From the NCBI GenBank assembly GCA_963836185.1, contig CAWIIQ010000003.1:224001-288000 (forward strand): DNA of 64,000 nt, written 5' to 3'. The notes beneath the pieces were generated by a model. The model saw only the letters and a program-made list of their open reading frames with translations. It had not been told where the DNA came from and ran no database searches. Below are positions 1,952 to 28,771 of the stretch, piece by piece (position 1 is the first letter of the stretch; every line of letters begins with the position of its first letter). A program made the translations under genes and the position numbers. The stretch comes from Candidatus Krumholzibacteriia bacterium (GTDB lineage: Bacteria; Krumholzibacteriota; Krumholzibacteriia; Krumholzibacteriales; Krumholzibacteriaceae).

Positions 1952-3141
1952 GCCTGCCCGCGTTTGCCAGCGCCAGCGTCATGATGTCTACGGCCGGGAA
2001 TATTCCCAGCCCTCCCCGGTCGCATTCAGCTTCGCTGAAGGCTGCCGCGCCGTCTATGCCGCAGAATTCCGACTTCAGGACAAACGGCAACGGGATGCCA
2101 CGAGTGGCTCTTCATCGCGCATGGAGTGGAGTGGTCGCCCGTGACGATCAGCACGTCTGGCTCGAGGCCGAGCAGGACCGGCAGGCAGGCGTCGACCTCC
2201 TCGATGACCCCCTTCTTTCCCTCCAGGTTGCCGTCCTCTCCGTAAGAGTCGGTCTTCTTTATATGGATGAAGATGAAATCATGTTCTCCGCGGCGGAAGA
2301 TCTCCGAGGCCGTCTCGAACTCCTCCTTGACAGAGAACCCGGTATCGGCCAGCTCCATCCCGCAGAGCTTTGCCACGCCTCTATAAAGCGGGTAAGCGGC
2401 GACGGCGGCGCCCGAAAGCCCGTACCTCTCTGAAAAGGGCTCGATGGCCGGTTTGCTCGATATCCCTCTCATCAGGACAGCGTTGGCTTTTTCTTCGTCG
2501 GCGAGGACCTCTCCGGCCATCTCGACAAAACGGGCGATGATCGCGGCCGTTCTCTCCGCGGCGGGAACCATGGCAACCGGCGGCAGGGGTTTTTTGCCCG
2601 TCACCTGGGGGTCGGTCTCCTCGACCTCGGGGGAGAGGCCCTCTCCCCTGAGGACAACGCCGAACCTGTATTCCCGAACCGGCATGACGATTACCTCGAT
2701 GCCGTCGATCTCCCTGATCCTTTCGCCGAGCTTCGCGCAGATCCTCATCCCTTCCTCGTGCGGGATCCTTCCGGCCCGCCGGTCGGTCAGAACGCCTTCG
2801 GCATCGACCGTCGCGAAGTTGCCCCTGATGGCCACATCGCCCGGGAGGAGATCGTACCCTGTACCCGTGACTTCGACGACTCCCCTGCCCGCGTCATTTT
2901 CAGGCGCCAGCGGATCATATCCGAACAGCGAGAAATGAGCAGGTCCGCTTCCCGGCGTTATCCCCCTCGCTATCGGAAGGGATCTGCCGCATATGCCGCC
3001 GGCGGCGACTGCGTCGAGGTTGGGAGTGACAGCTTCGTCGAGTGCGGTCCCGGGCATGGACGGCGTGCGTATCCCGCCGAGGCCGTCCATCACGAGGAGG
3101 ATTATCTTCGAGTCGTTCGCGCTGATCAGATGGCGGAGCAT
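1932..3141 (-). CDS. apgM: 2,3-bisphosphoglycerate-independent phosphoglycerate mutase, archaeal type; frameshift near 2085
   Basis: LLVMDGLGG, PGSGPAH, DRRAGRI, GDHSTP, HSWHPV; true C-terminus ...LANAGRLKKYGA* (stop 1932-1934) is in another frame. Confidence 0.9.
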
Positions 3142-3296
3142 ATCGGTTCTCCTTTTCGTTAGTGTTCCAGATTACAGCCGCCTGCCGCCCATGTCAACCG
3201 GCCGATGCGGCCGGCCCTCCTCAATCGGTTTGGGAATGAGGCGGAACAATGTTACAATACGAGGGTAGAGGATATTCTGACGTAACAGATGGAGGA

Positions 3297-8605: not shown

Positions 8606-10330
8606 ATGAGCACCGAGAGAAAAAGCATTTCCAAGGTCGGGAAGAGCTACGTCTTCGTTGGTTCCGACGAGCCCCTCATCGGGGAGACGATCGGGTTCAT
8701 GCTCGAGCGGATCGTCAGGACATACCCCGAGAACGACGCACTCGTATTCGTTCCCGATGGAAGGCGCTGGACCTACGCGCAGTTCTACAGGGAGTGCCGG
8801 ACGGCGGCGAAATCATTCATGGCTATGGGGGTCCAGCGCGGCGACCGCGTCGCGATATGGGCGACGAACCATCCCGAATGGGTGATCGCGCAGTTCGCTA
8901 CGGCGCTTATCGGCGCGGTGCTCGTTACGGTCAATCCCGCTTACCGTACGCATGAGCTCAGGCACGGCCTCGGCGATTCCGAGGCTCAGACGCTCGTGAT
9001 GATCCCTTCTTTCAAGTCTTCCGATTACGTGAAGATGCTCGGCGAGGTCGTTCCCGAACTTGCCGCGAGCGAGCCGGGAGCCCTCGATTCGAAGACGCTT
9101 CCTCTTCTGAAGAACGTCGTGCTGATCGGGGCGGAATCACCGGGTATGCGATCATGGGAGGAGTTCATGAAACTCGGCGCCGAGGTGAGCGAAGATGATT
9201 ACGAGAAGCGCCGGCGTGAGCTCGACTTCGATGACATCATCAACATACAGTATACATCGGGCACGACGGGGATGCCGAAAGGCGCGAGCCTGACACATTT
9301 CAATATCCTCAACAATGGTTACCATGTCGGCGAGACGATGAAGCTTACCCACCGCGACAGGCTCTGCATACCGGTACCTTTCTACCACTGCTTCGGCATG
9401 GTCCTCTCGAATCTCGCCTGCGTCACCCACGGAGCGACGATGGTCGTCCCCGGCGAGTACTTCGAGCCGAAGACGGTGCTCGAAGCGGTCGAGAAGGAAA
9501 GGTGCACCGCGCTGCACGGCGTCCCGACCATGTTCATCGCCGAACTGGCTATGCCCGAGTTCGGCGACTATGACCTCGGTACGCTGAGGACCGGGATCAT
9601 GGCAGGCGCCCCGTGCCCGGTCGAGATCATGAAGAGGGTCAATGACGAGATGAACATGAAGGAGGTCACGATCGCCTACGGCCAGACCGAGACCTCGCCG
9701 GTGATCACGCAGACGCCTTACAATGGTTCGCTGGAGATGCGTACTACGACGGTCGGCCCTCCGATACCTCACACCGAGGTGAAGATCATATCGCCCGATA
9801 CGGGAAGGACAGTTCCTGTCGGCGTTCAGGGAGAGTTGTGCTGTCGCGGCTATCAGGTAATGCGCGGCTACTACAACAATCCCGAAGCGACCGCCGAGAC
9901 GATAGACGAGGCGGGGTGGATACATTCGGGTGATCTCGCACTGATGAAAGAGGACGGTACCTTCAAGATCACCGGCCGGATCAAGAACATGATCATCCGC
10001 GGCGGGGAGAACATCTACCCGCGTGAGATCGAGGAGTTCCTATATACGAACGAGAAGATCCGCGACGCCCAGGTCTTCGGGGTTCCCGACAGGAAGTACG
10101 GCGAGGAGATCGCAGTCTGGATCCAGCTTCACGAGGGAGCGGAATCGAGCGAGGACGATATAAAGGCCTTCTGCAAGGGAAAGATCGCCCACTACAAGAT
10201 CCCCCGCTACATAAAGTTCGTCGATGAGTACCCGATGACAGTGACGGGCAAGATCCAGAAGTTCAAGATGAGGGATGTCTCGATCGCCGAGCTCGGCCTC
10301 GAGGAGGACGCGGGTATTGAGACGGCGTAG
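8606..10330 (+). CDS. AMP-dependent fatty acyl-CoA synthetase
   Basis: QYTSGTTGMPKG, AYGQTE, WIHSGD, IIRGGENIYPREIE, TGKIQK; AGGAGG RBS. Confidence 0.93.
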   Translation: MSTERKSISKVGKSYVFVGSDEPLIGETIGFMLERIVRTYPENDALVFVPDGRRWTYAQFYRECRTAAKSFMAMGVQRGDRVAIWATNHPEWVIAQFATALIGAVLVTVNPAYRTHELRHGLGDSEAQTLVMIPSFKSSDYVKMLGEVVPELAASEPGALDSKTLPLLKNVVLIGAESPGMRSWEEFMKLGAEVSEDDYEKRRRELDFDDIINIQYTSGTTGMPKGASLTHFNILNNGYHVGETMKLTHRDRLCIPVPFYHCFGMVLSNLACVTHGATMVVPGEYFEPKTVLEAVEKERCTALHGVPTMFIAELAMPEFGDYDLGTLRTGIMAGAPCPVEIMKRVNDEMNMKEVTIAYGQTETSPVITQTPYNGSLEMRTTTVGPPIPHTEVKIISPDTGRTVPVGVQGELCCRGYQVMRGYYNNPEATAETIDEAGWIHSGDLALMKEDGTFKITGRIKNMIIRGGENIYPREIEEFLYTNEKIRDAQVFGVPDRKYGEEIAVWIQLHEGAESSEDDIKAFCKGKIAHYKIPRYIKFVDEYPMTVTGKIQKFKMRDVSIAELGLEEDAGIETA

Positions 10331-10372
10331 GGCCGCCCGCGTAGCGATATCCGATCAAACGGGGCGTTCCAG

Positions 10373-11509
10373 TCAGCCGGAGCGCCCCATTGTTATGCCC
10401 AGAGCTTCGGCGGTCTTGACGAGCTGACCTTCGGGATCGACCCAGTTGATCTGCTTAATCGCCTGCTTGATCTCCTTGCTGACTATTTTGGTCCCCTTCA
10501 GGCAGACCATGTGGCCGTAGTATCCGAGGGCAATGTAATTGATCGCCTCGACACCGAATCTCGTCGCGAGGATCCGGTCGTAGGTGGTCGGGGTGCCGCC
10601 TCGCTGCATGTGACCGAGGACCGCGGTTCTGATCTCGGCCTTTGTGACCTCGCCGATCCTGGCGGCGACCCACTCTCCGATGCCACCAAGCCTTCCCGGG
10701 GAGCCCTCGTCCGGTTCCTTTTCGTAGATCTTCCCGCCGCCCTTCGGGAAAGCCCCCTCAGCGACGACCGCTATGCTGAACCTGCTGCCCGTCTTCTTCC
10801 TCTTTTTCAGATGAGCGATCACCGAGCCCATGTCGAACGGGATCTCGGGGATCAGTATGACGTCGGCCCCGCCTGCTACGCCCGCCTCCAGTGCTATCCA
10901 GCCGCTGTCGCGTCCCATCACTTCGAGTATCATGATCCTGTGATGACTCTCCGCGGTAGTGTGCAGCCTGTCGAGGGCCTCGGTGGCGACCGATACTGCG
11001 CTGTTGAAGCCGAAGGTCACCTCGGTCGCTTTCAGGTCGTTGTCGATCGTCTTGGGGACCCCCATCACAGGCACGCCTTTTTCGAAGAGAGCCTGGGTGA
11101 TCTTCATCGTGCCGTCGCCTCCGACCGAGATCAGGACGTCTATCTTGAGCTTCTTTATGTTTTTTACAATAGTGCCGGTGACGTCCTTGTATACGATGCC
11201 GTTCTTTCCCTCTACGGGGTAATGGAGCGGATTGCCCCTGTTTGAGGTTCCCAGTATGGTCCCTCCGCGCGCCTGGAGCCCGCGGACATCCCTCGAGGTG
11301 ATATTGCGGCTCTTTCCTTCGATGAGCCCGTCGAATCCATCGAGGATGCCGGTCACTTCCCAGCCGTGCAGGTTGACGGCGGCCCGGACCACGCCTCTTA
11401 TCACGGCGTTCAGGCCGGGACAGTCGCCGCCGCCGGTCAGAATCCCTATCTTCCTTATATCTTTCAGAGCGGGCATCTTCTGTGAGGATTTCCTTGTTTT
11501 TGGTGACAC
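10373..11509 (-). CDS. pfkA: 6-phosphofructokinase (group III/mixed-substrate type)
   Basis: TGGGDCPGLNA, GGTILGTS, GGDGT, PKTIDND, EVMGR, LGHMQRGG. Confidence 0.93.
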   Translation of the reverse strand: MSPKTRKSSQKMPALKDIRKIGILTGGGDCPGLNAVIRGVVRAAVNLHGWEVTGILDGFDGLIEGKSRNITSRDVRGLQARGGTILGTSNRGNPLHYPVEGKNGIVYKDVTGTIVKNIKKLKIDVLISVGGDGTMKITQALFEKGVPVMGVPKTIDNDLKATEVTFGFNSAVSVATEALDRLHTTAESHHRIMILEVMGRDSGWIALEAGVAGGADVILIPEIPFDMGSVIAHLKKRKKTGSRFSIAVVAEGAFPKGGGKIYEKEPDEGSPGRLGGIGEWVAARIGEVTKAEIRTAVLGHMQRGGTPTTYDRILATRFGVEAINYIALGYYGHMVCLKGTKIVSKEIKQAIKQINWVDPEGQLVKTAEALGITMGRSG

Positions 11510-11643
11510 GTCAGGTCCTTTCTGCGTCGGATCGTTTCTGCCAGCATATACGGTAACGGGATTCCCGCAGTGAGGCGATTTTACACCAACGCCTCTTCTC
11601 TCTCAAGGACAAGAAAAAGGTCCCTTCTGCAAGTCCGGTACCC

Positions 11644-11672
11644 TTGACTGATACAGGCTAATCTGTTATCTT
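11644..11672 (+). promoter_or_regulatory. Putative sigma70 promoter of YHS gene
   Basis: TTGACT-N17-TATCTT with TGn extension. Confidence 0.55.
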
Positions 11673-11709
11673 CGCCGTGCCTGAACAATGTGAACTGGAG
11701 GTATGCAAG

Positions 11710-11979
11710 ATGAAAAAACTACTAGTGATCTGTCTTGCGCTTGTCATTTTTGCTTCGGTGGGATGCGGCAACAAGCCTGACAGCGCCAGGGAATCGTCCG
11801 AGACGGATACCGAAACCGCGAGACTGGTCCATATCTGTGACCCGGTAGACGGAAGCGAGCTAAATCCGGGTATCGATTCGAAGTACATGTACGTCTACAA
11901 GGACACCGAGTACCACTTCAACAGCAAGGACAACTACGAAGCCTTCAAGAAGGACCCCGAGAAGTATGTGTCACAGTGA
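11710..11979 (+). CDS. YHS-domain lipoprotein
   Basis: Lipobox SVGC; DPV..., YKDTEYHFNS..., FKKDPEKY. Confidence 0.75.
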   Translation: MKKLLVICLALVIFASVGCGNKPDSARESSETDTETARLVHICDPVDGSELNPGIDSKYMYVYKDTEYHFNSKDNYEAFKKDPEKYVSQ

Positions 11980-12232: not shown

Positions 12233-12250
12233 TTCGGCATATCCCTTGCG
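12233..12250 (+). promoter_or_regulatory. Putative sigma54 (-24/-12) promoter of DUF11 operon
   Basis: ttcGGCAtatcccTTGCg: GG-N10-GC, resembles TGGCAC-N5-TTGC. Confidence 0.6.
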
Positions 12251-12393
12251 CAATGGCCCGATCGTAGGAGTTTTCCGTGACCGCCGTCCAGGCGGAACAC
12301 GGATCTTGAAATCAGACCTCCATAGACGAGATGTCCGTGCATCACCGCGTGCGAACTCCATTCGGACTGGAGGAAAACAAGGAGGACAGCCAG

Positions 12394-12885
12394 ATGAGAA
12401 GGAGTCTTTCCGTAGCGATCCTTCTTCTCTTCGCAGCCGTCTCCGCAGGCGCCGCCTTTGCCCAGGGCCCCGAGCTCAAGGGTGAGATGGCAGCCGCGAA
12501 GATCGTTGTCGATGAGGAAAAGGGAGAGATCGCTCTGCCCGCCGAGCAGGTCTACCCGAACGATATGGTCGAGTATACGCTGAAGTATACGAACTCCGGC
12601 ACCGCTACGGCGGCCGGTGTCGACCTGATCGGGCCCGTTCCGGTCGGAACGGTCTACATCGAGAAAACAGCAACCGACATCCCCGGACTCAAACCCATGT
12701 ACAGCATCGACCAGGGCAAGACCTGGCATGAAGCGCCGGTAATAGTCGAAGTCGCCCGCAAGGACGGGACGGTCGAGAAGAAGAAGGCCGACCCGGAGTT
12801 GATCACTCATGTCAAGTGGTCGATGGCGGAGAACCTCGATGTCGGGGAAGAGATCATGGTCAGCTACCGCGTCCATGTGAAGTAG
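12394..12885 (+). CDS. Small secreted single, C-terminally incomplete DUF11-like domain protein
   Basis: Signal peptide (AFA-Q), PNDMVEYTLKYTN, YSIDQGKTW, ends VKW..LDVGE..VSYRVHVK. Confidence 0.8.
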   Translation: MRRSLSVAILLLFAAVSAGAAFAQGPELKGEMAAAKIVVDEEKGEIALPAEQVYPNDMVEYTLKYTNSGTATAAGVDLIGPVPVGTVYIEKTATDIPGLKPMYSIDQGKTWHEAPVIVEVARKDGTVEKKKADPELITHVKWSMAENLDVGEEIMVSYRVHVK

Positions 12886-12987
12886 GCCGCAGAGGCTTCA
12901 GAAGTTTCGTTTTTCAAGTTCCCCGCGAGGGGATAGTTCCGTTTGAGGATGCTCTCCGTACGGAGGGCGGAAGGATGGTGATCAGGC

Positions 12988-15676
12988 ATGACTTTCAGAA
13001 AGTCAGCTGGGCTCCTGGTGCTCCTGGCGATAGCGCTTGTCGTATCGTCGGCTGCCAACGCCCAGACGCCTGCCGGAACATTGATTCAGAACCAGGCTTC
13101 GGCCACGTTCCAGGATCTCTCCGGCAACACTTACACGGCGACCTCTAATCAGGTCACCACGATCGTACTCCCGGTATACGGGGTATCAGTCCTTCCGGAT
13201 GGTACCGTGGCTGCCCCGGGTATGGTCGGAACCTCGATACCCGGACAGACGGTATACTACAGCTACAACCTCACCAACACGGGTAATGACCCTGAAGATT
13301 TCACGATCGTACCTATTATCGACGCGGCCACGACGATGACGCTCGGGCTGGGCGATATAGACATCTACCATGATGTCAATGGTAACGGCGTGCTCGATGG
13401 CGGCGAGCCCGTTATCTCGGCTGGCGGCGTGGCGGGCAATACCGGCCTCGTTGCCGCCGGTACGACGATTCAGCTTCTTGTCGAGTATCAGGTCCCCGCG
13501 CTGGCTGCCGCCGGCGAGGTCGCCTATGTCGGCATGACGGCTACATCGGTCACCGACATCACCCAGGTAGATACGGGAAACATCCACCAGACAGACGTAG
13601 TGAGCGATGCTTCGCTGACCGCGACGATGTCCGGCCTTCCGGCCAGCCTCGATCCCGGCGACATCGCGACCTACACGATCACCGGACAGAATGTCGGTAA
13701 CGACATCGCCAACGGCGTCACCGTAGCTTCGGTAGGCCTGACCGGCGTTCTCGTATATGACATCCTCCCGACCGATCCTTCGACCGGTAACCCGCTGGCT
13801 CTCTCCGGCGCTCCTGCCGGCGCTCCCGCGGGCGGCACGGTACTGTACCTGCCTGCCGGAAGCCCGACAGTCGGTAACCCCGAGACGTGGGCATGGTCGA
13901 CCTCCGCCGCTGCCGGCGACATAGCGGTTGCTTATGTCACCAACGGCGGCCTGACGATCGGCATGAACTACAACTTCACCTATGACGTGACCGTTCCTCT
14001 GACGATGCCTGCCGGTATCATCAACAACTTCGGCGATGTCGCCTACGTGGACAACAACGCCGGCACGGCCGATCCGACGATCGTCACGACAAACAACACG
14101 CAGATCGATGTGAACGTCCTTGCCGACGTCCTCGTCGGTCCGAACGGCGTCCCCGATGCTGGAACGCCTCCTGCGTATAACGACGATTCACAGGCTGTCG
14201 CGAACGCCTACGCGAACGAGACGGTCGACTTTATCAATACTGTAAGGAACGACGGCAACGCCGCGGACGTTATCAATATCGTCCTCGATGCCGGCGCTTC
14301 GACATTCCCTCCGGGATACGGCATCCAGTTCTTCCGTATTGACGGTGTCACTCCTCTGAGCAATACCGGCGCGGACGCGATCCCCGATGTCGGCAACATC
14401 AACCCCGGCGCGACGCAGGACTTCATCGTCCGAGTCACCATACCGGGTAACGCCGTTGCTGGCGGCCCCTACCTGGCCGTAATCAACGCCGTTTCAGAGA
14501 ATGTCCCGGCCGAGCTCAACGTCACCACCGACGAGATCACCGCGGTCAACCCCGCGTCGGTCGATATCGGCAACTATGACGGACTGGTCGGAACCGACAA
14601 CAACCCGCTTAACATCGATACCGATCCGGGCCTGTCGGTCGACTTCGCTCTCGACGTGATCAACACAGGTGGCTCGAGCGACAACTTCGATCTGTCCGCG
14701 ACCATCCCGGCCGCCTGGACAGTTACTTTCTATCTCGATGCCAACGGTAACGGCATTCTCGACAACCCCGAGCTCACCCCGATCGCGAATGTCGGGCCGG
14801 TAGCCGCGGGCGGCGAGGTCAATGTTATCGCGCGCGTCGATGTTCCCGCCGGCGAGGTTCCCGGCGTGAACGCTACGACATTCAGAGCCGCTTCGGCTCT
14901 CAACGCAGGCATCTTCGACGAGATCGCCAACACTGTGACCGTGCTCGGCGCGGCCGCCGTGACGATCACGCCCGACAGAAACGGTACCGGTACCGCTAAC
15001 GGAACGATCCGTTACCAGCATACCGTGACCAACACGGGTAACGTCGACGATACCTTCATGCTCAGCGCGCTCAGCTCGAACGCGTGGAGCTACGCCTTCT
15101 TCGATCTGGCCAACAACCCGATCCCTTCGGTCACCCTTGTTGCCGGCGCCACCCAGGACATTATCGTCCAGGTGTCGATCCCCGGAGGCGTGGCTGTTGG
15201 AACGATCGAGACCGGCACGATCACAGTTACCGGTAACGGTACAGGCGCCACCGATTCGGCTGTCGACGTCACGACGATCGTCGCCGGAAACCTCGTACTC
15301 GCGAAGTTCGTCAATCCTGTGGGCAATCAGCTTCCCGGAACGGAACTGACCTACCGCACGGACTACTCGAACGTGGGTGTGGCGGACCTGACAAGCATAG
15401 TCATCTATGACGCGATCCCTGCCTGGACCCAGTTCAGGGTCGGCTCGGAGTCCGACGGCACACTGGCTCCCGGGATCACAGCGATGACGATTGAGTTCTC
15501 CAGATGACGGCGGCGCGACGTGGGTATACGTGCCTGTCGAGCGGCGGCAGGCGGAGCCCCCGCGGGCTTCGACGCCACTCGTGACCAACGTACGGTGGAC
15601 CCTCACCGGTACGCTGGCCGGCGGCGACAGCACTGTCGACGGCGTCTCCCTCATAGTGAGGATCATCGCGGAGTAG
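12988..15676 (+). CDS. Secreted DUF11/Ig-repeat protein, putative major fimbrial subunit (frameshifts about 15500-15580)
   Basis: Signal peptide (ANA-Q), TPAGTLIQNQA, repeated xxNTGNxxD Ig domains, DxNGNG loops; C-terminus continues EFSDDGGATW...TNVRWTLTG...LIVRIIAE*. Confidence 0.85.
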
Positions 15677-15690
15677 CAGTACGCAAAAAT

Positions 15691-15777
15691 AAGGCGGGAG
15701 GGGCCGCAAGGCCCCTTACGCCTTACAGTTAAATGACGTATTCAGAGGCAGGTCCCCATGGCGGGGCCGCCTCTGAA
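15691..15777 (+). terminator. Two tandem hairpins after the putative major subunit gene
   Basis: aaggcg..aggggcc-gcaa-ggcccct..cgcctt and ttcagaggc...gcctctgaa; no U tract. Confidence 0.6.
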
Positions 15778-15891
15778 TCAGTAAAAGGGGAAAAGGCGGA
15801 AAGACGGAAGGCACAAACGCAGCAACTGCAATAAACAGAGAGAGTTATGAAGTAAGGCACATACAGGAAAGTTAACCGGCGAGGCGGCGCC

Positions 15892-18800
15892 GTGAAGAGA
15901 AGGAATTACATCACTGATTTTTCCACCGGGTCCACCGGCAGGGGGATACTCCTGTGCGCGCTGGTCCTGGCCGCCATTTTTGCGCTTTCCTCGCCCGCAT
16001 TCTCCCAGATCCCCCCGGCCGGCACGGTAATATCGAGCCGGTCGTCCGCATCGTACGTCGACAACGGCAATCAGCTCACGATCCTCTCCAACGAAACAGC
16101 GTTCAGCGTTCTGCCGATGTTCGGGCCCCTTCTGACGCCTGACGGCACTTCCGCCGCGCCTGCCGCCACACGGACGGCGTTCAGCGGGGAGACGGTCTAC
16201 TACCCGTTCACACTGACCAACACGGGAAACGCCGACGATACGTTCGGATTGGCAACGGTCCTGGCGGCGCCATCCGATTTCGTTCCCTCGGCCACGGCGG
16301 TCTATCTCGATGGAAACGGTGACGGAGACGTCGACCCCGGCGAACAGGAGATCACAGAGGCCGGACCGCTCGCTTTCGGGGAGACGGTGCAGCTCGTCAT
16401 GTCCGCCACCCTTCCTTCCGGCCTGACCGGGGGAGAGATCGCGCACATGGATCTCGAGGCGAGATCGCTCGGCGACACATCGCAGGTCGATCGCGGGAAT
16501 GTCGTACGCGTCACGGCACGCGACGAGGCGAGAGTGGAACTTGCGCTCGAATCGGATGTCTCATCCGTCATGCCCGGCGGATTTGTGACATACACGATGC
16601 GGTACGTAAACACCGGTGAACGGACCGCGACCGGTGTCTCGATCACCAGCATGATCGACACCCTTGGATTTATCGATGGAACAGAATACCTGGCAGGAAG
16701 CGCGTCCGCCGTGCCCGCCGGACTGATCGAATATTTTGACGGCGAGACGTCGGCCTGGATCGATGTCGCCCCGCCGGAGAACAGGGTAAAGGGCGCCCGC
16801 CTGCGCCTCGATACCCTCGCCCCCGGAGAGGCGGGATCCTTCTCACTGACCGTCCGCGTCGACGACGATCATGCCCGCGGCAATATCGTGAACACGGCCA
16901 CGGCCGGATTCACGGGAGGCGACGGGTTGCCCTACCAGCTTCTTTCCAACGAAGTGACGGTCCTCGTCGGCATGATAAGCGAGGTCTGGCTTGGACCGCT
17001 CGGGGATCCGCTCGCGACGCCCGGGTCGGATGACGACAGGGTCGTGATCTCACTCGGCGCCGCGGATTCGGTCTGCGTCTTCAGGCATGAGATCCTCAAC
17101 GCCGGTAATTTCGCCGACACCTTCAGCCTCGTGCTTTCCGACTCGGTGATGATCCCGTCCGGCTGGCAGGTCGAGTTCCTCGGTCCCGGCGACGTGGTCC
17201 TTCCATCCCTTTCGGCGTGGTCCGCGAGGCTCGGTCCGATCGAGATCGGAGGAACCAGGGAAGTCGCGGTAAGGATATCGGCCAGCGCCGAGATACTCCG
17301 CAGCTTCACGGGCCGGGAATTCGCTTTCGATGTCGATGCGAGATCGCTTGTCGACGATGCGGCGCGTGACGAGGTGCGGAACGTGCTCGTCAAGGGGGAC
17401 ATGCCTCTGCTGTCGGTCAAGCAGTCGATCCGCGAGCCGAACGCGATGATCGGCGACGTCGTCAGTTTCATCATCACTGTCGAGAATATGACCGAAGAGA
17501 CGGTCATCGACAGTGTCAAGCTCGTCGAGAACTTCCCCTCAGGGCTGAAATTCTCCAAGGGGTACGAGCAGCCCGTCATCGAGAACAACAAGCTGATATT
17601 CGATCTCGGGCAGCTTCTGCCTGGAGCGAAGAGAGACATCGTCATCAGGGCGACAGTCGCGGCGGGGCAGGAGAAAGACGAGCTCGTAACGACCGCCTAC
17701 GTCTACGGCTCGACGCAGTACGGCGAGGCCGCTGAAGACGGTCCTGCCTACGCGTCCGTCAGGCTCTACGAGGGAGAGTTCACCAGGCGCGGGATCGTGA
17801 TGGGAAGCGTCTTCATCGACCGTGACGGAGACGGGATTCGCGGTCGGGAAGAAGAGGGTGTCCGCGGGGCGGCCGTCTTCTACGAGAAGGGCACATACGC
17901 AGTAACTGACTCGAGCGGGCTCTGGTCGATACCGGGCGTCGAGGAGGGAAGGCACGTCTTCCGTGTCGATCCCAAGTCGCTGCCCGATTCGCTTGTGCCC
18001 GGTCCGGCTGGACATTTCGGAATGGGTATCGCGGGGCAGTATCTGATCGATCTCGCCCCGTCGGGCAACCGCCGTGTTGATTTCCCTCTGCAGGTGACCG
18101 AGGTCGCTTCGGACGGGGACGCTTTCGCCGCCATTGAAAGCGACAGCGCGGCGGTTACCCGACAGGGCTCCGTCGGTACCGAGACCGCTGCGGCATCAAC
18201 ATCACCGGAGAGCAACGGCGCGAGCGATGACGCGGTGTCCGGGCCGGCGGGGCCGGAGAGTTCAGCCGATACGTCAGGTACGTATGATGCCCTTAACCTT
18301 CCGGGAACACTCTTCGCCGCGGGAAGCTCCGTGATGGAGGAGATCCCGCTGCGCGAGGTGGCGGCCCTGAGTCTCTGGGTGCGCGAGCATCCCGGCTGGA
18401 AGATTGAGATCGCGGGACACTCGGACAGCACGCCGATCAGGACGGCGGATTATCCGTCCAACTTCGAGCTTTCACTCGCCAGGGCGCGGAGCGTATACCA
18501 GCTCCTGCGGATGAACGGGATCCCTGAGGGCGTGATGGACTACACCGGATACGGCGCGAGGTTCCCCATCGCGAGCAACGACACGGCCGATGGAAGGGCG
18601 AAGAACAGGCGAGTCGAGATACGCGCCCTGCCGCCTGAGGGTTACGCGGGAGTCGATCCCGACATTCCTGCCGCGCTCGCGATGCCCGACACGACGGCGC
18701 CGAAGGAGTTCCAGCTCGCAGACGACGCAGGCCTCTGCGCCGAGATCGTCAAGCCGGCCGAGGGAACGATCTTCACTGAGAGGGACGGGATCGACATCGA

Positions 18801-21730
18801 AGTCGTCGCTCCTCTCGTCTCTACGGTGGAGCTCTACGTTAACAATATCCCTGTCGGCAGGGAGAAGATCGGGCAGAAGCAGATCGACATCGGCGAAGGC
18901 ACGCTCGGATTCATATTCTACGGTGTCAAGATCTCTCCGGGACTGAACAATATCCTCGTCGTCTGCCGATCACAGGGTGAGAAGAATGTCTGCGTCCGCC
19001 ACGTATATCTCGCCGGCAAACCCTCCCTGGTCGTTGCCGAGCACAGGGATGTAGAGGTGCCGGCGGACGGCAGATCGAAACCCGGGCTCGTGTTCCTCGT
19101 CAGCGACGAGCACGGCCTGCCCGCCAGGGACGGACTGTTCCTCACCGTGTCGGGCCCCGGCGACCTGATCGACAAGCTCGACGTCAATCCTCAGGTAAGG
19201 GGCGTACAGGTAGCCACGAAAGACGGCCGCGTCTCGGTCGATCTGCCGCCCTCCGATTATTCGCGCAGGGAGAAGATAGCCGTTACGCTTGAGGATCTCA
19301 CCGCCGAGAGCCGCCTCGAGTATGTCTCGCCGATGCGCGACTGGTTCCTCTTCGGATTCGGCGAGGGGGACGTCGGATACAGCAGCCTGACGGGGACCGG
19401 TTCTACACACAGGACATACGAGCGGTATCCCGACGGTTTCTATGCCGAGGGCAAGCTCGCCTTTTACGGCCAGGGCGAAGTAAGCACGGGCCATCTCCTG
19501 ACGATGGCGATCGATACGAGGCCGATAGTCGAGGATAAGCTCCTTGACCGGATCGAACCGGAAAAATACTACCCGATATACGGCGACGCCAGTGAACTGA
19601 GATTCAACTCGTACTCGAAATATGGTACCTACGCGAGACTCGAGCACCGCAGCTACAACGCGATGATCGGGGACTACAAGACAGAGTTCGGCACGATGGA
19701 GTTCACCAGATACGACAGGACCTTCTCCGGATTCAGGGGATGGGGGCGTCGCGGCCGGTTCGATGTCGCCGGGTTCATGTCTTACAGCGACCAGATCACC
19801 GTCCAGGACGAACTGCGGGCGAACGGGACTAGCGGATTCTACTTCCTCCACAGGTATCCGCTTCTCGAGAACAGCGAGAAGATCAGGATAGAGGTCCGTG
19901 ACAGGTACCAGCCGGAGAAGATCGTCCGCGTCGACTATTACAGCATCAACAAGGATTACGACATCAATTACCTGGACGGCTCGATACTGTTCAAAAAGCC
20001 GATCCTCGCCTTCGACGAGAACTTCAACCCGAGGCATATCGTCGTGACATACGAGTGCCGCTCGGCCGATGACAACAATGTCATCGCCGGTATCCGGCCG
20101 ACCATCGAACTGGCCGACTCGCTGATGATGGGAGTCACGGCGGTCATCCAGGACGAGGGCGAACACAATTACTCGCTTGTCGGCGTCGATCTTGCCGGGC
20201 ACCTGTACAAGGATCTGTTCATCGAGAGCGAATACGCGCACAGCGAGAAGTTCATCGTCGGAAGCGGAGACGCCTTCAGGTTCAAGCTTATGGGACGGCA
20301 CGACCGGATGCTTCGCTGGAGCGCCTACTACCGTGATATCGACGAGAGCTTCTTCAATCCCTCATTCTCCGGAGGAAAGACAGAGCTGGGCAGCAGGAAG
20401 ATCGGCGGCGGACCTCGACTGGAGGATCGGACGCGGATGGTCGCTGATCTCGAACGGATTCGGACACAGGTACGCACAGCGAAACGAGAAGAAAAGTTAC
20501 ATCGACGTAAAAGGAAACTATCGCTCCGGCGCGCTCGATGGATCCTTCGGCCTGGCGCACGCGACGTTCAGCGATTCGAGGGACGGCTCCTCCGCTTCAG
20601 GGCTTCTCGTCGCGGCAGGAGGGTACGGCAGCGAGAATACGAAGGCCGAACTGCAGCTCGACAAGAACGTCACCGGCGATGAAGTGCCCGATTATCCCGA
20701 CCGGATACAGGCGAAGCTGACACAGAAGATATGGAGATGGCTCAACGGTGTCCTCTCATACGAATACAGGTCGGGTAGCCGCTCCGGCTCGAGGCATCTT
20801 ACTCAGCTCGGTATCGAGTCGAGCATAACAGAGAATCTCAGCGCCTACTCACGCTACCGGATGGAAGGCGCGATGAGCGGTGAGCGCTCGCAGGCGATGA
20901 TCGGGATGAAGAACAGGTTCAGGCTCTCCCCCGGGCTGACATCGACCCTCTCGGTCGAGAAGCTCGCTACGGTAAGCGGGACTGATCTCGAAGACTTCAC
21001 GGCGTTTGTGACAGAGTGGCTCTTTACGCCGCCGGGTAAGGATTACAAGTTAAGCGGCGGGTACGAGATCAGACTCGACAGGCAGAGGACGAAGCATCTC
21101 GTAGGATTCGCGGCACTCAAACGCCTCAGCGAGACCTGGGCGGGTCTCATCAAGGTCGATGCCTGGCTGTCCGATGAAAAAGAGGGGATGAACCAGTCGA
21201 AGAGCTCGGGAAGGCTCGGCTTCTCGTACAGGCCGGCATACAAGCCACTGACTGTTCTTTCGATGATAAAGGGTGTTTATGAGAAGAACAGCCCCGCTCA
21301 TCCGTTCGGGGTAGACAAGGCCCTTACCGTGATGACCGAGGCGAACTATCACCTCAACGACAGGTGGGAGATCGAGGGCAAGGTCGTCGGCCGGTGGGTC
21401 GAGAACACCTTCAGGCTGCTTACGGTCAGCTCATCTTCGTACATGTACCAGGCCCAGCTGATCAGGATGTTCGGCAAGGCCTGGGACGTAAGCGTCGCCG
21501 GGCGCGTCGTGCAGCAGATAGAGACGGGCACCCTGAGATACGGCGGCGGGATCCAGGCCGGCAGGATGATCCGCGAGAATGTCTGGGTCGGCGCCGGGTA
21601 CGATTTCGGCGGTCACAGGGACGAAGACACCGAACTGAACGAATTCACGCAGAACGGGTTCCATATAGGCGTCAAACTGAAATTCGACGAGAAGCTGCTC
21701 GGCTATTTCAACGGCAGCTCGGGAGATTGA
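15892..21730 (+). CDS. About 1945-aa DUF11 + SdrD-B-like + OmpA + outer-membrane beta-barrel protein (frameshift about 20410)
   Basis: Signal peptide; pilin-like N-terminus; GSVFIDRDGDG..GE.GV SdrD-B motif; OmpA GHSD...NFELSLARA...NRRVEI; ORF 20177..21730 supplies amphipathic strands ending GVKLKFDE. Confidence 0.85.
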
Positions 21731-21759
21731 GATAGAGAACACGGAGCACTGAAAAAGAA

Positions 21760-24660
21760 ATGATGAAGAGAAGTATCAAAAGTAAGACATTCAGAACGGC
21801 AGCACTCTTTGCCGTCCTTGTCATATCGGCAGCTGGAAGTGCCGGCTCTGGCGAGACAGTGATCGAAGGCGGGTTCGAGGGTGGATCGTTCGGTGCGGGC
21901 TGGGTGCATGGCGCGGCAAGGCTCAACGGGAATGAGAACGCCTTATGGGCCGACCATGATGTCGTTCTCGACCTTCCGTACACGGGAACCTGGTCTGCGC
22001 TGCTCGGCTACAAATACACAGCGGTCGCGAAGGACCGCTATGGATACATGTACCAGGAAGTCACGATCCCCGCGGACGCCTCCAGCGCAGTGTTCACCTT
22101 CCGTTACAGGCAGCAGGGATTCGATGGGCGCGCAAACGATCCTTTCGTGGCGGCAGTACGCGACCTGGCGGGCAACGTCCTCGCTACGATCGTCGATGTC
22201 GCCTTCGACGATCAGAGCAGCCACTACAAGGACAGCGGATGGGTCGATGTCACCTACGACATGAGCGCGTTCGCAGGCCAGACGGTACGTCTCGATTTTC
22301 GCCAGCACAACCTCCAGGACAACAGGTTCGAGACGTGGGTCTTCGTCGATGACGTCTCGTGTATATACAGGAAACATGTGGACCTTGCCGTCGACGGAAA
22401 CGGCGACGACGAATTCGGGGCCCCCGGAACAGGATCCGGGGGAATATCTGTTTCCAGCGGCGTGGCGGGTGGGACGGTTACCTACCTCATAGATATCGAG
22501 AACGAAGGTCTCGATATCGACTCCTACACAGTCTCCGCCTCACCCCCCGCCGGCTGGAGCGCCGTAATAAGATACGGCGGGGCCGACTATACCTCTCCAT
22601 GGACCACTTCGGCTGTCGCGCCGGGAACGACGATCTCGGCCGAGGTCATTTTGACTATATCAGCTGGTGCACCGGCAGGCAGCTATTCATCGATAGTCGA
22701 TGCCGTTTCGGTGTCCGATGGAACGAGATACGACAGCGTCACGCTCGGCACCACTATCACTTTAGTCCCGTTCGTGGCCGACCTCGTCATCGACGGTGAC
22801 GGACTGGGCACGATCGATCCCGCCGGAGGAGGCGGATCGTCGTCGGGAAGTGCCTATCCCGGAGCCTTTGTCGACTACGCTATCGAGCTTGTGAACGGCA
22901 GCAGCCAGCAGGACGATTTCACGATCAGCTTCGATTTCGATCCGGGAATAAGCGCAGTAATTATAGACGGAGCCCTGACCCATACGGCTTCGTTCAGTTC
23001 CGGGACGGTCGATTCCGGCGACTCGCGGACATATACGCTTCGCGTGACGGCCGATCCGACCTTTGCAGGAGGGGATTATCTCTCACACGTCTACGCCGCA
23101 TCCTCCGGCGATCCCTCCTCCGTGGACGGCGTCACGGCGACACTGACGGTCATCGCTCCCGTGCTCGACCTGGTCATCGACGGTAACGGAGACGGGATAT
23201 ACGATCCTTCCGGCAACGGCTTCGGTGGTGCGTACACCGTCGACGGCCTTCGTGGCACGACCGTTTATTTTTCGATCGCAGTGCAGAACGAGGGGGGAGT
23301 AGCGGATTCCTACACATTTACCTGGGACAGGCCTTCCGGCAACTGGTCCGCCGTGATCAACGACGGCACAACGGACCACGCTTTCCCGTGGACCTCTCCA
23401 GCCTTCGCTCCGGGTGAGGAGCGGACGTACACGCTCGCCGTCTCTATACCGAATAACGCGGCTTTCAATACCTGGGTATCGATCCTCGATGCAGTATCGG
23501 TCAGCGACGGCAGGATCGCGGAGAGTGTCTCGGCCGTCATCATGGTAAGCGACAAGATCGGGGTAGATGTCATCATCGACGGTAATGGTGACGGGGTTTA
23601 CGGTGGCCAGGGGACGGGAGCGGGCGGGTTGTCCTCCATTATGGCGGCGCCCGGCGACACGGTGACATTCGCGATAGTGGTCGAGAACGAGGGCGGAGTG
23701 GACAGCCACGACATCCAGTGGAACACTCCGGCAGGATGGTCGGTCCTTCTCGATGGGCAAGTCTCCCCGGTAGCCTCGGCGCCGGCGGGAGCCTACACCC
23801 TGCAGGTGATAGTGCCGCTGATGAGCCCGGTCGGGACCTTCGACATAATCCTCGACGCCATAAAGAGCAACAAGAACTTCTATGTCGACAGCGCGACCGG
23901 GCGGATCACCGTAACGGCCTCGCGACTCGTCGACGGTGTGATAGACGGGGCCGGCGACGACATCTTCGGCTCGGCGGGCCTCGGTGACGGCGGAACGTCC
24001 ACGCGCGGGACGGTGGCTGGAGTGGCAGTCGCGTTCATCGTCGAGATCCAGAACCAGGGGACGTTCGATGAGAGCTATACGGTAACGTGGAGCGAGCCGG
24101 CGGGCTGGACCGGGATCCTGGATGGATCGGTGCAGCCTTTCTCGACCGGTGTGATTCCCTCCGGAGGATCCGTGTCATACATCTTCGGGGCGACTGTGCC
24201 ACTGAGCGAGGTGCCTGGAGATTTTGATTATATCATCGATATAGTCTCAATCGACGATCCTCTGAACACGGAGAGCCTCACGGCACGTGTGACGGTTTAT
24301 CCTCCGCCGACGGTCGACCTGGTCAAGGCTGTCGACCTGGCCGCTGCCCAGCCGGGCGAGGTGGTCACCTATACACTTACATACTCGAACCCGAGCGCGG
24401 CGCCCATCATCGAGATCGAGATCGTCGATCCGGTACCGCCCGAGATGGAGCTCGTCCTTGACGCGTACGGCGCGGGGAGCGATATCTCCTGGACGACAGG
24501 GGCGGGCACAGTCTACCTTACGGCCGACCCTGCCGACGCAGATGAGGCCCTCTTCGACCCTGGCACGGGCGTCCTGCAGGTCATCCTCTCGCGGCAGGCA
24601 CCGTACATGCTCTCGACGGGTGAATCAGGCGTCATCGAGTTCCAGGTTAGAGTCAGGTAG
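21760..24660 (+). CDS. Secreted adhesin-like protein: N-terminal beta-sandwich, 5 Ig repeats, terminal DUF11
   Basis: Signal peptide; EGGFE..GW...WVFVDDV (CBM-like); repeats DLxxDGxGD; VDLVKAVD..PGEVVTYTLTYSN..IVDPVP..EFQVRVR*. Confidence 0.8.
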   Translation: MMKRSIKSKTFRTAALFAVLVISAAGSAGSGETVIEGGFEGGSFGAGWVHGAARLNGNENALWADHDVVLDLPYTGTWSALLGYKYTAVAKDRYGYMYQEVTIPADASSAVFTFRYRQQGFDGRANDPFVAAVRDLAGNVLATIVDVAFDDQSSHYKDSGWVDVTYDMSAFAGQTVRLDFRQHNLQDNRFETWVFVDDVSCIYRKHVDLAVDGNGDDEFGAPGTGSGGISVSSGVAGGTVTYLIDIENEGLDIDSYTVSASPPAGWSAVIRYGGADYTSPWTTSAVAPGTTISAEVILTISAGAPAGSYSSIVDAVSVSDGTRYDSVTLGTTITLVPFVADLVIDGDGLGTIDPAGGGGSSSGSAYPGAFVDYAIELVNGSSQQDDFTISFDFDPGISAVIIDGALTHTASFSSGTVDSGDSRTYTLRVTADPTFAGGDYLSHVYAASSGDPSSVDGVTATLTVIAPVLDLVIDGNGDGIYDPSGNGFGGAYTVDGLRGTTVYFSIAVQNEGGVADSYTFTWDRPSGNWSAVINDGTTDHAFPWTSPAFAPGEERTYTLAVSIPNNAAFNTWVSILDAVSVSDGRIAESVSAVIMVSDKIGVDVIIDGNGDGVYGGQGTGAGGLSSIMAAPGDTVTFAIVVENEGGVDSHDIQWNTPAGWSVLLDGQVSPVASAPAGAYTLQVIVPLMSPVGTFDIILDAIKSNKNFYVDSATGRITVTASRLVDGVIDGAGDDIFGSAGLGDGGTSTRGTVAGVAVAFIVEIQNQGTFDESYTVTWSEPAGWTGILDGSVQPFSTGVIPSGGSVSYIFGATVPLSEVPGDFDYIIDIVSIDDPLNTESLTARVTVYPPPTVDLVKAVDLAAAQPGEVVTYTLTYSNPSAAPIIEIEIVDPVPPEMELVLDAYGAGSDISWTTGAGTVYLTADPADADEALFDPGTGVLQVILSRQAPYMLSTGESGVIEFQVRVR
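22381..24300 (+). repeat. Five approximately 130-aa repeats starting D(L/V/G)xxDGxG
   Basis: Starts near 22381, 22780, 23167, 23566, 23932. Confidence 0.75.
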
Positions 24661-24819
24661 TCGGCCGCAGCCGACCGGGCTCTTCATTGCCGACACCCGT
24701 TTTCTGTGCTATAATCCCTATGTAACACCACGGCAGCTTATCCTTTTATTCGGCCCGCGCCAGTGGTCCCTCGACCCTTTACGGCCGGATTACAGTTTCT
24801 GTCATTGTCTGGAGGGGTG

Positions 24820-27800
24820 ATGATGAGACGCGCCCTCGTTCTATTTATTCTCCTGGCTATAATTCCGTCCACAGCACCGGCCCAGTCTCCTGAAATCGGG
24901 CGTATCGCGCTCTACGCCGATTCATTCAGAACATCCAGTGAAGTCGACCTGCCCGAGGCCTACACCTCGTTCGATCTCTACATCTTCTGCCAGCCGAGCG
25001 AAAACGGCATGTCATGCGCCGAGTTCGCCCTGGCCTCTACGACAGGATCGATGGTCGTTGCCGGGGGTGACTGGCACGATGGGTTGTCCGTGACGCTCGG
25101 GGATCTGATGACCGGAGTGAGTGCGTGTTTCGAGGAGTGCCAGACCGACTGGGTCTGTTTAGCCAGGGTGACGATGCTGAACTCTGATACGGACCCGGCT
25201 GTGATAGAGGTAGTGAGACATCCGGAGGCAGGTTACTACCAGTTCAGCAGCTGCCTTCCCGACCGTCCGATCGAACCGGTCTTCTTCGGGCCGGGCCTCT
25301 GTGTCAACTCTGACTGCACGCCTGATACAGATCCTCCCGTACCTGTAAGCATAGCTGTCGAGGACGATCTTCACATGACCCTGTACTTCGATGAAAAGGT
25401 ATTCGAGCCCGACGCTCTGGATCCGGGCAGCTACATCGTCTATTCGACAGAGGGCACACCGGATTCCATCCCTGTCATCTATGCGCTGCTGCGGCCCGAG
25501 GAGGACAGGGTGTGGCTGGTGCTCGGCGAGCATCTCACCGCGGACCCTTACAGGCTGGAGATAAGGGATCTCAGGGATGTCACGGGCAACCCCTCCCTGC
25601 CCGGAACCGGGATAGCGTTCGGCGGCGAGGATACTACTCCTCCCGATCTTCTGTACGCATACGCTCCGGACGATTTCAATGCGATCCTGGTCTTTACCGA
25701 AACGCTCGATCTAGTCTCGGCTGTTGATATCTCGAACTATACGACCGGTTGCGATGGTTGCCCCTCTGTCCCTCAGCCTGTCTCCGTGTCGATGAGGTCC
25801 GACGGCAGAAGTGTGTCACTGGCCCTCGACCGGCAGATGGACCAGGAGTGGATATACAACGTCACGGCCGGGGGTATCTTCGACATCTCGGGTAATGAGA
25901 TGGCTGCGCCTGTAACGGTCTTTTTCAAGGCGCCCGATACGACCCCGCCATCTATCGGCGAGGTATCGATCTCGTCGGATACCACGTTGAGGATACTCTG
26001 GAGCGAGACGCTCGATCCCGCATCGGCGGTCGATCTGGAGAACTACTCCTTTTTCAGGGACGGGCCGCCGGCCGAGCCGATGAATCTTGTATCAGCCGAA
26101 CTTTTCGGCGGCATCCATGTCAGTCTCGATTTCGAGCCCGCGATAGAGATCGATTGCGGGTATACACTGTTTGTAAGCGGGGTGACGGACAGCTCGATGA
26201 ATGTGATGCTTCCCGACACCTTATATGTAACACCTCTGGATACGATCCCTCCGGTCCTGCTCGGCGCTGAATGCATGGGGCTCCGGGACGTCGACCTGAC
26301 ATTCGACGAACCGGTCGATCCATCGGTGGCGGGAGCGACCGGATTTTTCCAGGTCTATCCGGCGGGAGATCCGGGGACTCTCCTTGATATAGACGGGATC
26401 TCTCTCTATCTCGGTGATACGGTAACCCGCCTTCATCTGATCGATGACCTCGCACACGGGATGAGTTACACGGCCCGCGTCATCAGCATCCGTGACCCGG
26501 CCGGGAACTCACTGCCCTCTCAGCAGCGCGATTTTACCTGTTACGACATATATTCCCCCGAAGTCCTCGAGATATTCCTGTCCGACCTCACGCATGTAAA
26601 TATCCGGTTCGATGAGATGGTCGATGGCGCGGCGGAACAGACGGCCAGCTATATCCTCCGTGAAGCGGCCGATTCCACTGCCGTGGTCGATCTGGCCTCT
26701 GCCGCCCTTTTCGATGGAGCGACGCGGGCAGTGCTGATAACGGCGGCGCCCCTCGGTATTGGCGAGATGTATATCCTGAAGATGAGCGGGATAGGGGACA
26801 TGATCGGGAATATGGTCGACCCGGACACTTCTTGGACCTTTATCGCTGAAGATACGGTCGATCCGGTCCTTCTCGGCCTTACCGTGACCAGCGACAGCAT
26901 CATCCATCTGGAATTCAACGAGCCCCTCGACCCGGCGGCGGCTGAGGATATCGCGAAATATGCCGTCGTGGAAACGGGCGACACATCAGTCAGGCTGCCG
27001 CTCCAGTCGGCATCGCTCGATCCGGCCGGCACTACGGCAGATCTCGAGATCGACGGGCGCGCAGCGATCGGGACGACGTACGCCGTCTGGATCGCCGGTG
27101 TGACGGATGTAGCGGGAAACGCATTCTACGGGGCCTCCGGCGACTTCCAATTCATCGACGACATCCCTCCGCGCCTGCTCTCCGTTGCCGGGGTGACGAC
27201 GAGGGATGTCATCGTCTTTTTCGATGAAGCGGTCACGGACGCCACGGCCGGTGACGAGCTCAACTACAGGCTGTATCCGACGGGCGACCCGGCATCAGAG
27301 GTCGGCATATTCCAGGCCGACAGACTCGCGGACCAGGTGACCGTCAAGCTCATGCTTTTCGAGGACCTCGCTCAGGGTACGGACTACACCCTCGATGTCG
27401 CCGATATCATGGACCTTGCCGGACATGCCATCGAGCCGGTTTCGATCGAGTTTCATTTCCTCGACCTCTTTCCGCCGGGGATCGTGGATGTGGACCTGAT
27501 CGACCCTTCGAGGCTGTCGATAGAGTTCGACGAACCTGTCGATTCGGTGACGGCAAGTGATATCAGGCAACTACGATGTATATCTGAGTTCTGATCCATC
27601 TGAGCTGATATCTGTGAATTCGATAGACTGGATGACCGGCGAGGTCCGGCTGAACCTCGCTACCGAGCCCCAGCCGAACGTTGACTACACGGTAAGGATC
27701 GATGGGGTCGAGGACCGGTTCGGCAATGCCTGCAGTGGACTCTACGGAAGCTTCAGGCGTGATGTCCTCGCGCCGTCGACAAAGATGTACCTCTTCGCCG

Positions 27801-28771
27801 ATGAATACAGGAGCACACACGATGTAGATGCCGATGTTCTTTACCAGCCTTTCAGTTATTACGTCTGGCTCGAGCCCGGCGGCAACGGAGTCTTCAGCGT
27901 CGATTACTCCCTGAGCGGGCCGGAGACGTATGTCCCGATAGGTATAGAGATGAATCCTGCCTGTGTGTCCGGGGTCCTTGGGGACCCCTGGATCGGGCAC
28001 ACCGTCGAGCTGTCGGTCTGTGAGCACGACTGGCTCTGGATCGCCCGGATCGACTGTATCTGTATCGATCCTGGAGAGCAGGAGGTAGTATGGATCGTGC
28101 CGCATCCCGGCGAGGGAGCGGTACAGGTCGCTTCATGCCTGGCAGGAAATCCGGTGGAGCAGGTGGTGGCGACATACCCGCTGCTCATAAACGCTGTTTA
28201 CATAGGCACGATGCTGGAGAGCTGGGACGTATCGCTGAGTGGCGGCGGTATCGAGCTGACCTGGTCGATCCTCCAGGCGGCGGGTTCGCCGGGGTTCGAG
28301 GTCTCACGAAGTTCCGAAGGCGCTGATATGTGGCAGAACCTCGACAGCGAGCTGATCCGCGGCGACGGCCTGAACTATTCGATGCTCGACATCGATGTCG
28401 AGTTCGGCCTGTCGTACAGGTACCGGGTCGAATGTGTCGAGGATGACGGGCGAAAGATCCTTTTCGAAACAGGTCCGGTCGCGACCCCGGCCATGCCGCT
28501 CACGCTCAGGCAGAACAATCCCAACCCGTTCAATCCTTCGACCCGCATCGAATTCCTCCTGCCGCGTCCCGGCCACGTCCGCATCGAGGTGTTCGATGTC
28601 AACGGGAGGCTGATCAGGGTCCTCGCCGACGGGCACTTAGCGAGCGGCGGGCATTCGGTCGACTGGGACGGACGGGACCGCACAGGCACGATGGTATCGT
28701 CGGGAGTATATTTCTACAGGCTGACGGCGGGGAAAGAGAGCCTGTCGCGGAAAATGGTGCTTCTGCGGTGA
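24820..28771 (+). CDS. Secreted protein with 8 Big_5/SbsA-like Ig repeats and FlgD/T9SS-type tail (frameshift about 27565)
   Basis: Signal peptide; eight DxxPP...F(D/N)E...NY...D.(A/S)GN repeats; QNNPNPFNP...KMVLLR. Confidence 0.85.

Follow-up and report, generated by a model that had tools for sequence, protein, structure and literature searches.

A candidate pilus system of split CLIPPER (DUF11) subunits and a giant predicted outer-membrane barrel in Candidatus Krumholzibacteriia

What do four adjacent genes build when their products carry, between them, the complementary parts of a single domain? This question is raised by a locus in a Candidatus Krumholzibacteriia bacterium (assembly GCA_963836185.1, contig CAWIIQ010000003.1), of which a stretch of 64,000 nucleotides, positions 224,001 to 288,000, was analyzed and is called the window here. 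The four genes, all on the + strand from 12394 to 24660, encode a small protein, a major subunit, an OmpA/barrel chain and a tip protein, each with a start that reads as signal-peptide-like. The contig is part of a 3.5 Mb genome that is 92.5% complete, in which the locus is single-copy and provides the only match to a donor profile searched in six frames; the closest homologues are named Candidatus Krumholzibacteriota. We find that a CLIPPER (DUF11) domain is split between the ends of these proteins, which probably form a long, surface-exposed and covalently locked fiber on a giant barrel, as sequence comparison and structural models of relatives suggest.

DUF11 has been renamed CLIPPER, and the accessible text of PMC12617251 describes its solved member as a nine-strand, CnaA-like fold. 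All four locus proteins match TIGR01451, and the small protein, barrel chain and tip match PF01345 above the Pfam cut-off. The major subunit (12988..15676; ~894 amino acids (aa) in relatives) is arranged as a signal peptide, a donor hairpin, an immunoglobulin-like (Ig) domain, a complete CLIPPER domain, three further Ig domains and a terminal acceptor. A sequence-only reading of the window had proposed that this donor, TPAGTLIQNQASATF..SNQVTTIV (13063..13170), repeats the last two strands of the major's own internal domain (13606..14115). The motifs it quoted lie where it placed them, the donor directly following the signal peptide of the 12988 gene, and hhalign aligns the N-terminal 36 residues with columns 135-169 of the 170-column internal domain, i.e., its last 35 columns, at 93% probability. 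The same donor aligns with the last 29 columns of the first internal domain of the barrel chain at 96% probability; none of the Ig domains, whether the adjacent one or the three later ones, reaches 2%, and neither does the terminal domain.

The acceptors are the other half. Terminal domains of the major (15283..15673), the tip (24304-24657) and the small protein, a 163 aa chain consisting of a lone truncated acceptor (12394..12885), match complete domains of 147-170 columns over their first 112-132 and no further, so that the truncations claimed earlier for all three are borne out by profile alignment. One detail fell away: VSLIVRII, taken as the end of the major's final DUF11 domain, sits in another frame, and the open reading frame (ORF) as read stops at 15507. 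The barrel chain (15892..21730; ~1945 aa in relatives) opens with a donor hairpin (16012..16113) and, as anticipated, has no acceptor at its end, as is true of all 43 complete barrel ORFs over all loci (0/43 end in one). Over its first 460 residues the barrel chain is paralogous to the N-terminal half of the major (29% identity, E 5e-41), a kinship that, like the divided catalytic triad described below, adds to the earlier reading. The tip (21760..24660, 966 aa) consists of Ig repeats ahead of its acceptor, lacks a donor, and has an N-terminal domain with a weak choice-of-anchor-J/MAM-like match.

Because the major and barrel frames of the window are broken, folding was done on intact relatives, a major that is 88% identical and, from a second relative, a barrel chain that is 80-83% identical. 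AlphaFold2 (129 sequences) models the major as a seven-domain rod with a predicted local distance difference test score (pLDDT) of 92 and a predicted template modeling score (pTM) of 0.53. The donor forms two bulged strands (7-17 and 23-35, pLDDT ~90) in the same pattern as the final strand pair of the internal domain (318-329 and 339-350), and the terminal domain has seven strands. We looked in this model for folding of the donor peptide into its own neighboring domain, the outcome that the sequence-only reading had named as fatal to it, and find that the adjacent Ig domain is complete without the donor. The only stretch of very low confidence is 740-742, the joint ahead of the acceptor. In a fold search, the internal domain (182-351) matches CnaA domains of sortase pilins, e.g., BcpA with Z 12.8 and a root-mean-square deviation (rmsd) of 2.6 Å over 130 aligned residues. 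Rows covering the first Ig domain begin at residue 37, except for two integrin rows, and none of 50 rows extends past residue 741. Sequence searches of the PDB with the major and barrel chain return nothing beyond OmpA, and absence from the fold lists excludes no family.

In the solved CLIPPER domain, Lys715 is bonded to Asn806 with the aid of Asp748, as the accessible text of PMC12617251 has it. In the major this triad is divided between the two chain ends, with Lys773 (15304) and Asp808 (15409) in the terminal acceptor, which ends before the Asn strand, and Asn35 (13090-13092) in the donor hairpin. Each of the three is found in 116/116 close majors (length at least 870 aa). A distant set comprises the 102 majors of 740-1100 aa among 150 representatives listed (less than 50% mutual identity; 2621 matches), and here Asn is present in 92, Lys in 92, Asp or Glu in 98, and all three in 87. 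Of the 15 that lack the full triad, eight look partial or unrelated and two lose Asn and Lys together, possibly in one event. The internal complete domain keeps its Asp and Asn, and none of 129 aligned sequences, 87 of them picked because the terminal triad is present, has Lys at the triad column; bond chemistry is therefore conserved at the split site. Acceptor Lys and donor Asn occur together in 42/42 ORFs that carry both halves. Lys and Asp are both kept by all nine complete tips of the first loci and by the tip of the window, whose Lys aligns with Lys715 (a weak match, E 1.2). Mutual information between donor and acceptor places the Asn-Lys pair at the top of its block (z 4.8), with control blocks reaching 5.0-5.4. 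The BsaA pilin of C. perfringens polymerizes by donor-strand exchange followed by an autocatalytic intermolecular Asn-Lys bond, according to the accessible part of 10.1101/2024.11.04.621531. Given CLIPPER chemistry and this precedent, a Lys-Asn covalent lock between subunits is likely.

Two positions depart from this pattern. The barrel chain's donor has Ser in place of Asn (codon at 16036), as do 58 of 63 close relatives, the others having Gly (3) or Ala (2) and none Asn, and the small protein has Gly80 at the position of the catalytic Asp. In this clade both links would therefore be reversible. Gly replaces Asp in 22/24 small proteins of the first loci, and 10/12 diverse sequences have no acid there. 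The missing Asp is firm, the Lys register less so: a Met considered for the Lys position was discarded when a wider alignment placed a conserved Lys36 there. The small protein, matched in 67/151 genomes of the phylum and 27/32 of the family, likely caps or chaperones donor hairpins without locking to them rather than serving as a subunit, an assignment that is well supported from sequence comparison for this clade and the Thermus, Acinetobacter and Pacificitalea loci, although not for all.

The arrangement is not peculiar to this genome. Among 26 loci of relatives, 14 have the same four-gene order, and no differing order is seen in the remaining 12, which are truncated by contig ends; a metagenome scan with one protein gives seven loci. 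Beyond these relatives, the operon is found again in Thermus, Acinetobacter, a cyanobacterium and an alphaproteobacterium. Plasmid records with the set are those of Thermus thermophilus HB8 (pTT27, genes TTH_RS10905-10925; small protein, major, stalk, barrel and tip), Acinetobacter haemolyticus, the cyanobacterium Synechococcus NIES-970, the alphaproteobacterium Pacificitalea and Deinococcus radiodurans (MP1), and the system thus spans phyla. Gene order is kept in T. thermophilus HB8, A. haemolyticus and Pacificitalea, the tip not being seen in the 30 kb of the last; the stalk is encoded as a protein separate from the barrel in Thermus, Deinococcus and Synechococcus. The A. haemolyticus major (locus positions 8882-11716) is annotated in several pieces. 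Tips are ~966 aa long here and in one relative and ~1300-1350 aa in most relatives, with a constant terminal acceptor. DR_B0037, listed in a D. radiodurans supernatant table (PMC5382914), may be the major there and carries no weight in this account.

A barrel chain with a donor only, a major with donor plus acceptor and a tip with an acceptor only recur across phyla, and subunits from ~360 to 1000 aa retain both ends. With the modeled donor hairpin, this supports the head-to-tail polymer of tip, majors and anchor proposed earlier, and the subunits very probably pair as a donor-acceptor chain in trans. The N-terminal two-strand hairpin of one subunit would fill in the C-terminal domain of the next subunit toward the tip, and a self-forming Lys-Asn bond would then lock the major-major and tip-major joints. 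Which half each protein carries gives the order: the tip (acceptor only), a series of majors (both halves) and the stalk of the barrel chain (donor only).

The base is as unusual as the joint. Behind its donor and its major-like stalk, the barrel chain has an SdrD_B-like domain (17785..18093), an OmpA-type peptidoglycan-binding domain (18313..18609; structural match with Z 15-16), two Ig domains and a predicted outer-membrane beta-barrel of ~38 strands with one inserted beta domain (19327..21700). The ~790-residue barrel has no match in Pfam, NCBIfam or PDB sequences, and the upper ESM Atlas matches are all unnamed clusters. A count from the alignment gives ~38 strands and the model of a relative has 38 long strands plus the insert (mean pLDDT 84, pTM 0.64). 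The best Foldseek matches, SlpA, MtrB, SprA, LptD and FimD, all have template modeling (TM) scores of 0.35 or less; against known large barrels the model gives TM 0.10-0.34 and rmsd 16-37 Å (16 Å for FimD, ~37 Å with TM 0.10-0.16 for SprA), values that the multi-domain 1150 aa model may weaken. We thus predict a ~38-strand barrel without a close PDB match, which would, to our knowledge, exceed every solved single-chain barrel. SprA of the type IX secretion system is likewise a very large single-chain barrel, and in type V secretion passenger and barrel are fused or adjacent; the locus barrel would resemble these in passing folded domains and in having its passenger fused or side by side, and differs from SprA in the missing sequence match and low TM score. 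No C-terminal type IX sorting domain is found on any of the four locus proteins (0/4), although neighbors at 27557 and 30939 carry one. The genome also has one or more SprA-like genes (another contig, C2, 330573-335059; weak PF14349 match) with a DYDIDY..G motif resembling the barrel insert; homology of the barrel to SprA is not confirmed, as profiles do not match this gene despite the likeness.

We propose that the four proteins would leave the cytoplasm by Sec export, and that the small protein, lacking the catalytic Asp, would cap donor hairpins in the periplasm without locking them. In this clade the Ser-bearing donor of the barrel chain would hold the last subunit reversibly, and, in the most speculative step, an incoming major could displace that donor and lock in turn, which would let the fiber grow from its base as by a ratchet. 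Anchorage to peptidoglycan would come from the OmpA domain, the N-terminal domain of the tip may bind a surface or glycan, and the fiber would be rooted on the giant barrel, which would also export it.

Does any known system already account for these features? Chaperone-usher pili consist of tip, shaft and base components with a periplasmic chaperone and a 24-strand usher barrel (FimH, FimA, FimC and FimD; PapG, PapA, PapH, PapD and PapC). The locus shares their tip-shaft-base logic, an N-terminal donor predicted to complete the next Ig-type fold, a predicted outer-membrane barrel and a putative small periplasmic helper. It differs in that the donor is a two-strand hairpin rather than one strand, the fold is CnaA-like CLIPPER, subunits are multi-domain with a predicted covalent lock, the helper is an acceptor rather than a strand donor, and the barrel is predicted to have ~38 strands rather than 24. 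The absence of classical pilus genes noted earlier stands: usher family PF00577 has no match in the locus proteins or the 92.5% complete genome (E. coli control positive), and a Pfam scan of the locus finds no PapD-like chaperone, the small protein being a truncated CLIPPER acceptor. No sortase is found in the locus or the genome, and LPXTG occurs near the C-terminus in 0/116 close and 0/102 distant majors. As to type V pili, a lipobox is present in only 1/116 and 3/102 majors, and the donor is N-terminal, not C-terminal.

BsaA shares the placement of Asn on an N-terminal donor and of Lys and acid on the acceptor, the latter assigned here from sequence; as far as their accessible descriptions go, BsaA and TasA are Gram-positive proteins with the TasA fold, SipW processing, single-domain subunits and no outer-membrane barrel. 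The TasA family has no match in the locus scan, and the subunit ends are DUF11/CnaA-like. CLIPPER fibrillar adhesins (PDB 9IFR) share the domain family and triad, and the 9IFR adhesin has an OmpA-like anchor; its bond is intramolecular within tandem repeats, the accessible text mentions neither a split form nor a barrel as partner, and the term "strand complementation" is absent from the main text (PMC12617251). The locus domains have the PF01345/TIGR01451 match and CnaA-like fold of the CLIPPER family, and their triad is not contained in one continuous domain. Archaeal threads are donor-strand polymers (PMC9715654) for which a preprint also reports isopeptide bonds, and the enterococcal Elr/WxL pilus is a donor-strand polymer with tip, shaft, terminator and chaperone (10.64898/2026.10.17.759780); as described in the accessible parts of these reports, both differ in fold and envelope, and Elr is sortase-anchored and confined to Bacillota. 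Two further candidates for the same system were set aside, CryoSeek TLP-1, described in the accessible text as having a single donor strand and a six-strand body (PMC11494351), and Litorilinea GhlA, a one-chain DUF11 filament in its available description. The split domain, operon and barrel are not described in the literature found, although a prior report in subscription journals is possible. The system resembles a chaperone-usher pilus crossed with BsaA, yet lacks defining features of both families, and would be a new kind of pilus if the fiber interpretation holds.

Several findings weigh against such a fiber. Model pTM is only 0.53 for the major and 0.64 for the barrel, the donor possibly docks on its own chain in the model, and the window's own major and barrel genes are frameshifted. 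Among the distant majors listed, four have Asn without Lys and one Lys without Asn. In distant barrels the donor residue is mostly Asn, which makes a non-locking barrel donor clade-limited and rules out that it is always non-covalent. Asp is kept in 14/43 small proteins over all loci, which rules out that these are always dead; their possible Lys position is occupied by Lys, Arg, Leu or Glu, and at least six of them have Lys in a possible register. Finally, the 25 kb of D. radiodurans contain the major, stalk and barrel, and neither small protein nor tip is seen there.

A second layout bears on how long the fiber would be. Four of the plasmid records gathered for barrel matches (S. meliloti, Eleftheria, V. 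campbellii and Sulfitobacter) have a two-gene version instead, a giant DUF11 adhesin (2647 to >3761 aa) ending in an SdrD-like domain, followed by the same barrel. In these stretches the barrel has no N-terminal donor match and the small protein is not seen; an OmpA-like tail on the giant adhesins is seen by eye and not matched by profile. Giant adhesin and barrel are a candidate two-partner export system in their own right. The SdrD-like domain lies near the end of the chain preceding the barrel in all three layouts, fused, split and two-gene, and that barrel and SdrD-like domain also serve giant one-chain adhesins points to a dedicated export and anchor route. It is, in our judgment, an even call whether all this amounts to an undescribed, phylum-spanning export and pilus pathway, in which the ~38-strand barrel would export CLIPPER adhesins in the folded state, with an SdrD-like tether domain as their mark, either as a giant chain or as a covalent, SpyTag/SpyCatcher-like split-domain polymer driven by an ATP-free ratchet.

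The two-gene systems, with one adhesin of 2600-3800+ aa beside the same barrel, also suggest that pairing in trans might yield only a short, fixed stalk of tip, one or a few majors and base, i.e., a modular version of the giant adhesins. The major is already a seven-domain rod, and the locus has no ATPase or other energy source. We nevertheless regard a short stalk as unlikely, since the major carries both halves and is hence repeatable, and some relatives have donor/acceptor subunits of only 363-374 aa. These short subunits occur in another family of the phylum, where the gene of the small protein is also preceded by one more gene with an acceptor end; this compact variant possibly has minor pilins. 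An excess of major over barrel would also fit two strong RNA hairpins in the interval between their genes (15690..15785; -60.9 kcal/mol and z -6.8 for 15677-15800), which possibly step expression down from major to barrel. They lie directly 3' of the major gene, and one has a GCAA tetraloop, with no T run.

It is also improbable, in our assessment, that the system is decaying in the source genome, with a major lacking its full acceptor and a broken barrel. Relative to intact copies, the major has four 1-base insertions at ~15503, 15540, 15549 and 15578 (against 4/4 relatives) and the barrel gene one at ~20409, where its ORF is split (3/3 relatives covering the site); full-length relatives have majors mostly of 884-920 aa and barrel chains of ~1900-2000 aa. 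Five insertions across two genes, and no public run seen to cover these sites at near-identity, would fit decay, but every change is a 1-base insertion, four fall within 80 bases, and in comparison with the closest relative silent codon changes outnumber replacing ones (162 to 73). Two genes unrelated to the locus, at ~1358-1383 and 2089-2093 of the window, also change frame against one relative, pointing to scattered indel errors in the assembly, and the five insertions are probably of this kind.

An exported fiber is likewise favored over a periplasmic chain or envelope lattice, in which the barrel would be a pore or anchor rather than an exporter and the polymer a covalent scaffold on barrel and wall. 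This we hold to be very unlikely, even though the donor-bearing stalk precedes the OmpA domain in the same chain, so that surface display needs passage through the chain's own barrel, and D. radiodurans SlpA is among the barrel's top Foldseek matches, if only with TM ~0.2. Tips vary in length and N-terminal domain as adhesins do, the two-gene cargoes exceed the periplasm in length, and Thermus, Deinococcus and Synechococcus encode the stalk apart from the barrel. Least probable of all is self-completion, in which each major would fold its hairpin into the terminal domain of the same chain, giving a closed ring or a circularly permuted monomer, and all the proteins would be separate secreted adhesins: the single-chain model has high donor confidence and very low confidence at the 740-742 joint alone, as expected of a closed ring, but a tip and small protein without donor and a barrel chain without acceptor can pair only in trans, and subunits keep both ends whatever their length.

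Beyond the four genes, 24763-28771 encodes a Big_5-repeat protein with an FlgD-like/type IX-like tail in two overlapping ORFs (943 and 404 aa), which relatives match as a single block of 4 kb immediately downstream of the region of the tip gene; it is probably one gene with a frameshift and has neither donor nor acceptor. Elsewhere in the genome (contig C1, from 1280399), a 5372-codon open frame whose Ig repeats are nearly identical and recur at intervals of about 202 residues encodes a giant adhesin.

If the proposed fiber holds, the locus would add a new class of pilus, probably together with a new route of export across the outer membrane, and would give a role to a large set of genes now called DUF11, TIGR01451 or hypothetical. 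The barrel would be a contender for the largest one formed by a single chain, and the joints would supply split isopeptide pairs, evolved in nature, that could serve protein ligation and heat-stable fibers. The system is present both in uncultured sediment bacteria and in cultured T. thermophilus HB8 and D. radiodurans MP1, where it is directly testable.

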